Shown one piece after another: positions 41,704 through 48,960 of a stretch of 64,000 bases of DNA; positions within the stretch are counted from its first letter, which is position 1, and each line of letters starts with the position of its first letter. Made by a program: the position numbers and the translations under genes. The notes beneath the pieces were generated by a model that saw nothing but the letters and a program-made list of their open reading frames with translations, had not been told where the DNA came from and did no database searches. Source of the DNA: Saccostrea cucullata (taxonomy: Eukaryota); contig NW_026920084.1 of NCBI RefSeq assembly GCF_032062105.1, forward strand, positions 62,001-126,000. The letters are read 5' to 3'.

Positions 41704-42247
41704 CACAGGTACTTGTGGACAGGACCCCCCCCCCCCTCCCAATATACACCCCTGGTCAAAATATTTTTTTTTCTTTTTTTCTCAAGAATTATGTTTCTAG
41801 TACTTATTTACAATGTATTCCATATGAAAAACCCAAAAAATAACATAGATTTAACGATTTACGAAAAAAGTCATACCAGGGTATTATAAAATAGAGAAGG
41901 TAAGTCACTTCGGGTTGTTAATTCGGACCCCTCTTGAATATCGGGCCTAAAATATCATATACCTATTACATGTCACCAAAATGTCTAGTCATGCCTTAAT
42001 TCGGTAGAGGTTTTTGTCGTAAATCGTGCCATTTTATCAACCAAACATTATTCTGTTATCCCTTTATTAACCGTCAAACGCCAAAAATCCAGAAATGTCA
42101 AAGCAGAAATTACGGAAGTGACGAAAAAACGACACCTCGTAGTAATTTACTACAGGAACGATAACTCCACTTCTGTACTCGGAGAGTTCCGAATGTAATA
42201 GAACCAAAGGAAAGAGCCGAAATTTGCGAAAAAAAGTACGGGAAATA
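41704..42247 (+). repeat. Left terminal inverted repeat (544 bp)
   Basis: Reverse complement of 48416-48960. Confidence 0.95.
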
Positions 42248-42250
42248 AAA

Positions 42251-45200
42251 ATGGACGACGATCAACGAAGAGCATTTGAATTGGCAACTTCTGGACATAA
42301 CTTGATAATTACTGGACAAGCCGGGACAGGAAAAACTTTTCTTGTCAAACAAATTGTAAGGTATTTAAGACAACTGAAGAAAAATGTTGCTATTGTATGT
42401 TCTACCGGTATCGCCGCGACTCATTATGGTGAATTAAGGGCACAGACATTGCATAAATGGGCCGGGATAGAGGATGGCAGACACTTGAACGAAGAAATAA
42501 TACACTTAGTAAAGACTGATGAAAGGTTCAATGTTGCTAAGAAAAATATTGAAAATGCCGAAATACTAATTATTGATGAAATTTCCATGATTAGCGCAAA
42601 AATCCTACATCAAGTTCAGTTACTTTGTAAAAATGTCAGAAATTCAAAACTCATCTTTGGCAATATCCAGGTGATACTTGTGGGAGACTTTTATCAACTC
42701 CCACCTATTTCAAACGAACTTTTTGGAGATCTTGGAAATCATTGCTATAGATTACCTTGGTTTGAAAATTATTTCCCACACAAAATTAACTTAAATATTA
42801 TCCACAGACAGGAAGATCAGCTCTTGATTCAATGTATTAATGAACTTGAAATTGGAAATCTCTCAGAAGATTGTGTTGCATTTCTTCTTTCTCTTGATAG
42901 ACCAATACAAAATGAGAAATCATGTGTACACTTATTTGCTAGAAATTTAGATGTAGACTTGTATAATTACAACAAATTGCAAGCACTTCAAGGGGAGTTA
43001 AAGGTGTACAAAGCTGAGGATGAGGGCTCTCAACACTATCTCAACAAATTTCTGGCCCCTAAGAATCTAGGATTAAAACTTGGTTGTCCTGTTATGCTGA
43101 TTAAAAATTTAAGTGACACATTAGTGAATGGACTTTGTGGAACTGTGACAAATTTATGTAATGATTCTGTAGATGTGAAATTTATGGAAAATCATAGTAC
43201 ACCAATTACAGTGTCCATTTCAAGAGAAATTTTCACAATATTTGACCCTGTGGATAAAATTGTTTTGGCGAAAAGAGTACAAATGCCCTTAAAAGTAGGA
43301 TTTGCTATGACAATACACAAATCCCAGGGAATGACCTTGAAAAATTTAGTTATTGATTGCACAAATTGTATCCAGCCTGGGCAACTTGGAGTTGCCATAG
43401 GCAGAGCAGTATCTGTTCAGGGTTTGAAAGTAATAAACTTCCATAAAAATCTATGCAAAAAACATCCAGGTCATGTATACAATTTTTACGACAGTTTTTC
43501 AATTGGCATTGTGAAATGTGATCTAAGTTGTTGCAGGGATAATGTTGACATTAGTACTCTGACAGCAGATACTGGTCATAAATCTGAAGACACTGATGAT
43601 GCTATCGAGTCAAAAGTTTTGAATGAGGATTCAGAATTTTCTGATTCAGAGATTGAAGAATTAGAATTCATAGACAATATTCTTAGTGATCCTGGTCAAA
43701 ATGCACTTCCTGATCAGTTTTCACAATCAAAACTCATTTTGGACTCTGCAGTGCAGAAATATTCTGACACACCAGTAGAAACAATTATTTTCAGTTTCAG
43801 GGATGCAATCTGCAAAAGTTATAAATATTTTGATGACTGGTTTCATGAGCAATTTTCAATAATGGAAGACATAGGACTGAATACTTTTCCTGAAGGGGAA
43901 ATGTCTTTTTCTCAGAAGCATAGAAATGATTATTTTATTAGATTCAACAAGTATCTTAACTCAGATGATTATGAAAAAAGTGCAAAAACCTTGCTTAATT
44001 ATTATGAGCAAAATTCTGAAGGGCCAGCATTTCAGCTTTTAACTGCAGTTATGTTTCAGATAGAGAAAGAATTTTTTCTTCAGCTTTCTTCCTATCTTCA
44101 GTTATCTGCCCCTGAGCCTGTAAAAAAGCTAACTGTTCAGTCTGACCTGGAAATGGACTCTGCAGGAAAAGGGAAATTAAGGTACATAAGTGGATACATA
44201 TTAGCCAAATTGAAACATACTTTGTCAAAAAAAATCAGAAATATATTATTCACCAAAGGTAAAGAAACAGAGTTGTCAAGATTTCAATCACAAATGGAAA
44301 TTCTCAATTCATTGTGTACTTCATTTGATCATTTAAATGCTACAGCAGTAGAGCCGGAGACCCTACTTGAAGTTAAACACAGACAAAATGACAGAGAGAG
44401 TCTCACTAATGTGTCTGATTTGACCTTTAGTTTTTTCCAAAAACTTGAATTACTATGCCGTGAAAAACTTACTCATGATAAGCTAGTTGATGATAGAAAA
44501 TATTTATTCAGTTCTATTAAGGGAGAAATACTCGATAGTTCTTATATTTTTGACACATGGATTCAGTGTGTTGCGAAGTCGAGAAATCAATTGAATGAAA
44601 ATCAAACTGAAGATATTTCTGATCTTTTGTCTTCAATGGTCATGACCTGTGATAGTTACACAGAGATTTTCCAAGCAGTTGTCTCTTTATTCCTCAAAGT
44701 AAATTTAAGTCAGTTTCGAAGAGATTTCTTAACATTTTTGAAAAAAGAGAAGAGTGTCGCACTGCGTAAAAAGGTCATGAAAAGGTCAAAAACAGTTGTG
44801 AAAACTTTCAACATGAAATTTTTCTCAGAAGATGACTCTAGCAATAAAGAAGTTTCATTATTAAGGTTAAAATCTGAACTTTTACAAAATGAAAAATTCT
44901 TTACTGAACATTCATTTACCAAAAAGGATTTGATCTCAATATGTCAGCATTTTAATTTGAAAGCTACTATGAAGCAAAAGAAGGATGATATCATAAAAGT
45001 GCTTGTCGATGGAATTCTAGAAAATGTTCATGCATCCAATCAATCTGTACTTGACACTGAACAGGCAGGACCTAGTAACTCTCAACCTTCGTATGCTGAT
45101 CTGACTCCCGCTGGCTCTGTATCATCTGGACCTGGCCTTTCACCACAACCTAGAGAAAGAGGTAAGAGAACATCAAGCAAAGGAAAAGGTAAAGGGAAGG

Positions 45201-48350: not shown

Positions 48351-48415
48351 TTTGAATACCTTTGCTTAATTTCATCTCTTTCCTTATTTTTTGCGCTTTA
48401 AAACAACCGCCGAAA

Positions 48416-48960
48416 TATTTCCCGTACTTTTTTTCGCAAATTTCGGCTCTTTCCGTTGGTTCTATTACATTCGGAACTCTCCGAGTACAGAAGTGGAGTT
48501 ATCGTTCCTGTAGTAAATTACTACGAGGTGTCGTTTTTTCGTCACTTCCGTAATTTCTGCTTTGACATTTCTGGATTTTTGGCGTTTGACGGTTAATAAA
48601 GGGATAACAGAATAATGTTTGGTTGATAAAATGGCACGATTTACGACAAAAACCTCTACCGAATTAAGGCATGACTAGACATTTTGGTGACATGTAATAG
48701 GTATATGATATTTTAGGCCCGATATTCAAGAGGGGTCCGAATTAACAACCCGAAGTGACTTACCTTCTCTATTTTATAATACCCTGGTATGACTTTTTTC
48801 GTAAATCGTTAAATCTATGTTATTTTTTGGGTTTTTCATATGGAATACATTGTAAATAAGTACTAGAAACATAATTCTTGAGAAAAAAAGAAAAAAAAAT
48901 ATTTTGACCAGGGGTGTATATTGGGAGGGGGGGGGGGGGTCCTGTCCACAAGTACCTGTG
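48416..48960 (-). repeat. Right terminal inverted repeat (545 bp)
   Basis: Reverse complement of 41704-42247. Confidence 0.95.

Follow-up and report, generated by a model that had tools for sequence, protein, structure and literature searches.

Why would a DNA transposon set the start codons of two convergent genes directly against the inner ends of long terminal inverted repeats (TIRs)? The question is raised by an element on contig NW_026920084.1 of Saccostrea cucullata (NCBI RefSeq assembly GCF_032062105.1), within a stretch of 64,000 nucleotides (nt; positions 62,001 to 126,000 of the forward strand) that we call the window and number from its first letter. A preliminary description had read the repeats as twin identical promoters that drive a PIF1 gene and a transposase gene inward. 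Our best explanation, to which we give a probability of about two in three, is that this is a young two-gene P transposon whose transposase is likely split, and that the inner ~150 nt of each TIR are likely one host-type promoter used twice. What the sequence itself provides is that the start codons abut the inner TIR ends, that the inner module is conserved, and that the PIF1 gene is transcribed and spliced. The element and its two genes lie as follows (bp, base pairs; aa, amino acids).

41695..41703, no strand: left target-site duplication (TSD), 9 bp, ACACACTTT
41704-48960: P-superfamily DNA transposon with two convergent genes (PIF1 and transposase) and TIRs of 544/545 nt
41704..42247, + strand: left TIR, 544 nt, starting with CACAGG
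42251..45561, + strand: PIF1-fusion gene, coding part; exons 42251-45267 and 45522-45561, 1018 aa when spliced; Pfam PIF1, E 3.5e-26
45879..48350, - strand: P-type transposase open reading frame (ORF), 823 aa, intronless, without the C-terminal domain; PF21787 (TNP-like RNase H), E 8e-15
48416..48960, - strand: right TIR, 545 nt; inner module at 48416-48550, mirror ETS site at 48544-48550
48961..48969, no strand: right TSD, 9 bp

The two TIRs differ by one substitution and one indel, the latter in a C run, and the element termini read CACAGG...CCTGTG. The preliminary description had set the limits at 42100..48560; these coordinates are correct, and the TIRs extend ~400 nt further outward. It had also located both start codons rightly: measured inward from the inner TIR ends, the PIF1 ATG (42251) is at 3 nt and the transposase ATG (48350) at 65 nt, each just outside the repeats. 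TIRs (here 544/545 nt with CACAGG ends) are a trait of the P superfamily, as is an 8-bp TSD, which was found in most insertions of the window's family (five of the six distinct ones with both ends read); the window copy has 9 bp. Other families have 8 bp in several cases and 7 bp in one. A 7-bp TSD with T/A ends was rejected for the window because other copies start with CACAGG. Both genes occur at nine genomic places with 88-100% protein identity (two of the nine are one insertion on two contigs), several copies of the window's family keep both ORFs open, and the closest named transposase, from Saccostrea, is 98% identical; on sequence grounds, the family is young. One copy (L007/L015) has three substitutions that are common to both arms and absent elsewhere, a sign of arm homogenisation or of a sub-family. 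At C18601:31853-46887 (L005, L006, L010, L013), two full copies with their own 8-bp TSDs lie 525 bp apart with the transposase ends facing, which fits local hopping. For many of the RNA reads at window positions 41704-41736, the match is confined to the terminal ~32 nt and gives way to other sequence; these come from further short elements with the same ends inside host transcripts.

Protein searches of the genome returned many paired transposase and PIF1 genes. Thirty-nine loci were fetched, 22 had both TIR arms, and together with the window these make up 15 families, each represented once after near-copies and loci without both TIRs had been excluded. Their transposase cores are 37-72% identical to that of the window, and their TIRs are about 300-550 nt long; three TIR pairs (L037, L044, C10911) are interrupted, and their full length is not fixed. 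The paired genes are always on opposite strands and start from opposite element ends. Convergent genes that start at the inner TIR ends, a layout of the MuDR and ProtoRAG type, were found for PIF1 in 15/15 families, with the ATG at -9 to +96 nt from the inner TIR end, and for the transposase in 13/15, with the first ATG at +5 to +128 nt; the two remaining starts were unassignable. At C3018 (L078/L046) the TIR extends over the PIF1 start codon, and both arms read ATG GAT GAA; at C13167 (L058/L074) the PIF1-side TIR is duplicated in tandem (503-nt and 363-nt matches to the opposite arm). We also found a non-autonomous sister family of ~2.5 kb (L099-L103) with ~670-nt TIRs and no coding remnant, whose TIR is 88-89% identical to that of the window across the first 434 nt; a genome search for it gave 1028 candidates at first look.

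The part of each TIR that adjoins the start codons carries a set of short words, located here together with the transposase leader (CRE, cAMP response element; UTR, untranslated region).

42113..42247, + strand: inner TIR module, likely promoter and start of the PIF1 5'UTR; islands near-invariant in four sister families, enrichment over 15
42113, 42130, 42160, 42187 and 42239, + strand: module words CGGAAGT, CGACACC, GATAACTC, TTCCGAATGT and CGGGAAA, respectively
42113..42123, + strand, with mirror at 48540-48550, - strand: CGGAAGTGACG; ETS core kept across families, half-CRE tail not
48351..48415, - strand: transposase-specific leader, 65 nt, with E2F-like TTTCGGCGG and an out-of-frame upstream ATG at 48375

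CGGAAGT was found in the inner 150 nt of 10 of the 15 families, seven times forward and three times reversed (shuffle mean 0.32, maximum 4 in 1000), in 0/15 of the mid-TIR segments (the next 150 nt) and in 0/14 flanks, and it was the top 7-mer in an unbiased screen of inner segments. GATTGG/CCAATC is present in six of the 15 inner segments, and in four of the five families without CGGAAGT, with the result that 14/15 inner segments hold an ETS word or a CCAAT box vs 0/15 mid-TIR segments. In 10/15 families (shuffle 0.76), the TIR edge or the PIF1 leader carries the E2F-like CGGGAAA; 5/13 transposase leaders have an E2F-like word, and 8/15 inner segments have GATAAC; TATA boxes, present in two of the 15 families, showed no enrichment. 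The names ETS, CCAAT and E2F are the customary ones for such words. CpG per 150 nt is 8.9 in the inner TIR, 4.8 in the mid-TIR and 3.6 in the ORF (p about 0.001). Fourfold sites in three intact sister families have an identity of 0.31-0.39 vs 0.29-0.31 at random, that is, synonymous saturation, and despite this ACGGAAGT and TTCCGAATGT are invariant among the closest families; mid-TIR identity between families is 0.40-0.64, near the 0.48-0.50 of shuffles. A held-out set of 12 sequence windows, from which six copies of already counted families and two located inside an intron were dropped, left four gene starts from further families, of which three have the ETS word and all four the E2F-like word.

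The preliminary description had built its case on an ETS/CRE-half composite, CGGAAGTGACG, in each TIR. This 11-mer is present at the sites named above and in all 16 arms read of the window's family, and its ETS core is conserved in 10/15 families; the composite as a whole is kept in 1/15 only. Allowing up to one mismatch, the window-shuffle mean is 0.23, and 2/100 shuffles reach two matches; the mirror copy follows from the TIR and counts as one event, not two. In the window the word is followed by AAAAA rather than TCA, leaving half a CRE, and even this half did not hold up: it survives in one of the 15 families, the 88-89% identical non-autonomous sister reads CGGAAGTGATC or GAAC in its place, and TGACG is found in 5/15 families vs 3.9 in shuffles. 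The genome holds 17,123 copies of CGGAAGTGACG vs 160 of a reversed control; eight sites that were fetched proved to be other sequences without real likeness to the window TIR, and the count was rejected as promoter evidence, as other repeats dominate it. These genomic copies (examples L091-L098) are often clustered a few hundred bases apart in repeats unrelated to the window TIR, and are often extended to the full CCGGAAGTGACGTC with a second inverted ETS word. The mere presence of CGGAAGTGACG is therefore weak evidence, and its weight comes from conservation across families.

Two further proposals concern the 5'UTRs and the length of the TIRs. The 5'UTRs are not identical as had been supposed: the transposase has 65 private nt, in which the upstream ATG at 48375 opens a 10-codon ORF that overlaps the main start, and the PIF1 gene is alternatively spliced. 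Promoters had been offered as the reason for the unusually long TIRs, and they account for ~150 of 545 nt, the mid-TIR being near shuffle level between families. The conserved terminus is ~50 nt, and the rest of the TIR is unexplained by a promoter, save that it is carried between two duplicated signals.

RNA-type contigs connect the TIR with each gene. Transcription and splicing of the PIF1 gene are shown by four GT..AG joints on the + strand; its transcript overlaps the 3' end of the transposase gene in antisense, and RNA splice joints confirm the short last coding exon of PIF1. Contigs over the 5' end of the transposase gene were found in three of four runs and stop after 6, 13 and 19 nt of TIR. 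The one ending at 19 nt continues for another 24 nt in which six of ten T are read as C and nothing else is changed; on the transposase-sense strand this form is A-to-G, and it has 0 genome matches.

48434..48457, - strand: changed TIR stretch, from one RNA-type contig joined to the transposase 5' end; six A-to-G on the inward strand

This single contig likely reflects A-to-I editing of a sense transcript that takes in 43 nt or more of TIR. Other elements, with only the terminal ~32 nt in common, were the source of most TIR reads, and the first-mate direction was mixed at + strand joints, which left the strand unreadable from mates. Coverage gaps in the TIR (X1, 48461-48500 and 48581-48660; X3, 48422-48697) were not used as evidence because contigs drop sequence and X12 covers this portion of the TIR.

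Five families bear on the tie between the transposase gene and its TIR, as they hold the transposase body within a PIF1 intron. In 5/5 of them, a short ORF beside the far TIR ends TG|GT at a Trp that matches W12 of the window transposase, and in 2/5 the frame is picked up again 3.4-4.1 kb further on, beyond the PIF1 3' exon, at a pyrimidine-rich AG|G acceptor; one of these acceptors falls exactly where the tblastn match starts, at residue 13. An equivalent mini-exon is also present in five non-nested families. The mini first exon of the transposase is thus predicted to stay at its TIR despite nesting, and with such a splice the 5' end of the gene would remain tied to the TIR whatever intervenes. 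The genes in question are mutually nested and antisense (C12679/C16601/C17469, C3018, C3634, C13167 and C12024; L045, L048, L059, L046, L057, L058, L064 and neighbours), a PIF1 intron holding the transposase body and the first intron predicted for the transposase holding the 3' exon of PIF1, and the point at which PIF1 is split varies among the groups. On the tree, the nested layout requires two changes, and a single origin remains compatible. Motif conservation amid saturated synonymous sites, together with a predicted mini first exon beside the TIR, makes it likely that the inner part of each TIR is a shared promoter. With starts beside the inner ends in 15 families and a conserved ETS/CCAAT module, the idea of twin TIR promoters is partly supported, shorn of the composite and of identical 5'UTRs.

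We then consider the proteins. The transposase structure model (mean predicted local distance difference test, pLDDT, 87.8) matches 6pe2_A in Foldseek (E 4.7e-19), and its residues 299-805 superpose on 128-569 of the Drosophila P transposase 6p5a_A over 429/442 residues (Z 35.1, root-mean-square deviation, rmsd, 4.0). Judged on this model, the protein has the core that defines the P superfamily, namely a DDE RNase H domain, a helix-turn-helix (HTH), a GTP-binding insertion and the P-type fold. It lacks two traits of canonical P/THAP9 proteins, the N-terminal THAP domain, of which the Pfam scan found none, and a C-terminal domain in the same polypeptide; GTP-dependent cut-and-paste with 17-nt 3' extensions is a further mark of that canonical group. 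The place of THAP is taken by another domain.

48108..48347, - strand: N-terminal RFX-type winged helix, replacing THAP; RFX5 profile, E 0.0027

Transposase residues 2-81 align with the RFX5 structure at Z 10.4 (rmsd 2.8, 76/82 residues). Membership in Mutator and Mutator-like elements (MULE) was ruled out: the P fold scores Z 35.1 vs 9.9 for the bacterial Mutator-like ISCth4, and PF21787 is the only Pfam match. Homologues were found in mussels, ark shell, pearl oyster, clams, a snail, a hemichordate, a coral and a priapulid, and in Tegillarca the two genes carry adjacent locus numbers. Two transposase homologues (P0070, P0095) are labelled as a bacterial metagenome bin (Sedimenticola), of which host contamination is the likely cause.

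The transposase stops at residue 823, 18 aa after the residue matching Drosophila 569, where the C-terminal domain of Drosophila P begins. A candidate for that domain is found on the partner.

44147..44749, + strand: PIF1 residues 633-833, predicted P C-terminal-domain fold with KLRYISGY motif
44182..45064, + strand: alternative intron that deletes the C-terminal-domain-like region and gives a 656-aa helicase-only form; two reads in X16, one contig in X1
45888..46155, + strand: PIF1 3'UTR exons, overlapping the transposase ORF end in antisense; introns 45613-45887 and 46041-46154; GT..AG joints in X15, X16 and X1

When PIF1 residues 540-960 were modelled (pLDDT 77.8), residues 633-833 found the P C-terminal domain (6p5a_B 617-734) at rank 1 of 48,161 chains, with Z 10.4, rmsd 2.6 and 118/118 residues aligned; the next-best chain reached Z 6.5. 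Far behind the helicase stands a K-x-R-Y-x-x-G motif, presumably that of P C-terminal regions, which is invariant in 28/28 aligned relatives and within which intron 44182-45064 cuts, taking out the domain. A profile of the PIF1 C-terminal-domain-like region matched 0/120 transposase homologues, and in the 105 where the last catalytic motif was found, the tail after it is at most 114 aa long. Because the domain that the transposase lacks is predicted on the PIF1 protein, the models suggest a P transposase divided into two subunits, each gene encoding half of a single cut-and-paste enzyme. A two-subunit enzyme had been proposed in the preliminary description, and it gains structural support from the truncated transposase and the domain predicted on PIF1.

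The PIF1 ORF that starts at 42251 on the + strand has 1014 codons. Residues ~856-925 (window 44816-45025) and their counterparts in homologues P0001-P0018 form a small helical domain with weak SAP/HeH likeness (Ku70 and the Rho N-terminus, Z about 5). A PHD finger is present in 7/28 aligned relatives and absent from the window's PIF1 protein; apart from such PHD fingers in relatives, Foldseek and profile searches with the PIF1 C-terminal half gave no named match. Helitrons, which fuse PIF1 to a Rep/HUH nuclease and are without long TIRs or a TSD, were ruled out by the features of the element: no Rep family is among the 25 Pfam matches listed, and long TIRs, a TSD and a DDE partner are present. 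These findings suggest a transposon origin for many mussel and ark-shell proteins that carry the label 'PIF1'. Beside the element, window positions 50007-50380 and 50799-50856 hold a short inverted-repeat pair 324 nt apart and a 26-bp hairpin in GC-richer sequence, possibly a small non-autonomous element.

Several observations weigh against a promoter in the inner TIR and a shared enzyme. The raw reads (39, 29 and 19 in X14-X16, from one study) were too few for start sites; in these three runs none lay over 42102-43271 or 47016-48415, and no start peaks appeared. X2 gave no contig over the transposase 5' end. A 2229-nt X12 contig (its kind is not on record) contains PIF1 with 293 nt of TIR, reaching 158 nt past the ETS site, and starts may thus be further out, scattered, or the product of read-through. 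With an intronless transposase gene, an antisense overrun from PIF1 and no AATAAA on the + strand in 45300-48400, the unedited contigs need not be transposase mRNA. The families share ancestry, by which the shuffle p-values overstate independence, and the motifs other than that of the preliminary description were chosen after inspection, which makes their p-values optimistic. The host control comes down to one informative gene in five, PCNA, which shares the CCAAT and E2F words of the elements (CCAATC, TTTCCCGCC and TTGGCGCC, 170-225 nt upstream of its ATG) and has no ETS site; of the other four, three lacked any promoter-like signal ahead of the ATG (at least two have a splice acceptor there), and for one the match began within the gene. 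The non-autonomous sister family retains the module in 9/9 arms read, as expected of end-binding sites. As to the enzyme, a Z of 10.4 is below the ~13 that the tool gives as safe for helical folds, and the match to the P C-terminal domain was missed both by Foldseek with the PIF1 C-terminal region and by the sequence profile search.

Part of this would be accounted for if the conserved inner islands were mainly transposition signals, bound by the element's own RFX-type winged helix or by host helpers, with transcription coming from the outer TIR or from host read-through. GATAAC, found in eight of the 15 inner segments, resembles an RFX half-site, and the transposase has an RFX-type domain; the module kept by the non-autonomous family and the X12 contig reaching beyond the ETS site point the same way. 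Internal binding sites and subterminal repeats are described for Drosophila and zebrafish P elements (PMC7776569). We regard this explanation as unlikely. From family to family the motifs, which are words of host promoters (ETS, CCAAT, E2F), change strand and substitute for each other; with TIRs ranging over ~300-550 nt, their position follows the start codons rather than the ends; E2F-like and CCAAT sites also occur in gene-specific leaders outside the repeat; the first exon remains at the TIR in nested families; and both roles can coexist, as with the YY1 sites of ProtoRAG (PMC7481187). It is highly improbable that just one of the genes owns the promoter and that the copy at the opposite end is a by-product of TIR extension and arm homogenisation, with no selected co-regulation. 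Inner TIR ends do wander, one family's repeat includes the start codon, one copy shares three substitutions between its arms, and P relatives with one gene, such as Galileo, can have long TIRs; yet in 15/15 families the repeat ends at the start codons or shortly ahead of them, a transposase leader of 5-128 nt leaves no room for another promoter, and RNA-type contigs join the TIR to both genes. Both TIRs might also be promoters while PIF1 is a captured accessory helicase that acts alone, for example in gap repair, the domain match being chance or a relic. That match lies in an all-helical region with 16% identity and escaped two of the searches, a spliced form without the region exists, Drosophila PIF1 alone promotes synthesis in double-strand gap repair (10.1101/554550), and other DNA transposons carry accessory helicases (PMC9587614, PMC10045372). 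A solitary helicase is nonetheless distinctly unlikely in our judgement, as the match was suspected from YISGY before the search and then came out at rank 1 of 48,161 over the whole chain with rank 2 at Z 6.5, and as the matched region is exactly what all 120 transposase homologues lack, its motif being invariant in 28/28 partners.

If a split P transposase is indeed expressed from twin TIR promoters, a host ETS-family factor, or NF-Y in families with a CCAAT box, would bind the module, and RNA polymerase II would start inside the TIR and proceed inward, with both genes tied to S phase by E2F-like sites that lie at the edge of the TIR and in each gene's own leader. One mRNA would yield the catalytic subunit, with its RFX-type winged helix, HTH and RNase H domain holding a GTP-binding insertion, and the other the PIF1 helicase fused to the missing P C-terminal domain. 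That domain might dock the helicase on the transpososome, where it would reshape the ends of the transposon or assist in filling the donor gap. The shared promoters would switch on both genes in the same cell, and the private leaders, the upstream ORF and alternative splicing may set the protein ratio. We consider evenly balanced the broader proposal that these elements are an undescribed and widespread invertebrate P lineage in which the transposase is split, THAP is swapped for RFX, the C-terminal domain sits on PIF1, the two proteins form an obligate complex, and a duplicated S-phase promoter and the layout are kept even when the genes are nested. New, if true, would be a P transposase naturally cut between catalytic core and C-terminal domain with a helicase on the second half, and the split would then be the reason for twin promoters here. 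The element would offer a natural system for questions on the role of the P C-terminal domain and on helicase action, be it at the ends or in donor-gap repair; a young family with open ORFs is directly testable, and the inner TIR may serve reporter work as a compact, naturally replicated mollusc promoter (ETS, CCAAT, E2F-like).

The literature searched yielded no P element that has PIF1, an RFX domain or a transposase split in two; Repbase and Dfam lay outside this search and may already catalogue the lineage. The available part of a Pif1 survey (PMC8788227) makes no mention of 'P element'. Helicases accompany DDE transposases elsewhere: AcademH encodes both and has 9-10-bp TSDs (PMC10045372), and KolobokH and Kolobok-1_CCri encode a RecQ helicase (PMC9587614). 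These elements share with ours a DDE transposase plus a helicase, but belong to other superfamilies, and the Kolobok helicase RecQ is of superfamily 2 (SF2), whereas our element combines PIF1 (SF1B) with a P core; in the comparison with AcademH, its transposase is P-like by fold and its helicase is PIF1. The 11-mer CGGAAGTGACG equals the conserved core of the ETS-CRE composite bound by GABPA/CREB in human promoters (PMC3464117); our element has this core without a full CRE, and its tail is unconserved among related families.

Drosophila P is a single gene with THAP, a C-terminal domain in the same chain and 31-bp TIRs, and its short spliced form lacks the C-terminal third (PMC7776569). Our element resembles P/THAP9 in its HTH, RNase H and GTP-binding insertion (Z 35.1), its mostly 8-bp TSD and a spliced form without the C-terminal part, and differs in having two genes, an RFX-type winged helix, a C-terminal domain predicted on the PIF1 fusion, and long TIRs. 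The principle of twin inward TIR promoters is already in print, for MuDR and ProtoRAG. Lancelet ProtoRAG has tail-to-tail genes and a two-subunit transposase, and both of its full-length TIRs drive reporters and are bound by a host factor (PMC7481187). Like our element, it is an animal TIR transposon with two tail-to-tail genes; it differs in its Transib/RAG lineage, 5-bp TSD, YY1 site and RAG2-like partner, whereas the arms of our element are >99% identical along 545 nt and its partner is predicted to hold a transposase piece plus a helicase. In maize MuDR, two convergent genes have promoters and start sites within ~215-bp TIRs, with read-through antisense RNA and alternative splicing (PMC3440606). 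The likeness extends to the two convergent genes, antisense read-through and alternative splicing; MuDR, however, is a plant element with a MULE transposase and a second gene of unknown function, whereas ours has a P-type core, TIRs of about 300-550 nt with ETS/CCAAT/E2F words, and a helicase partner. It would work like MuDR and is not a member of that group.

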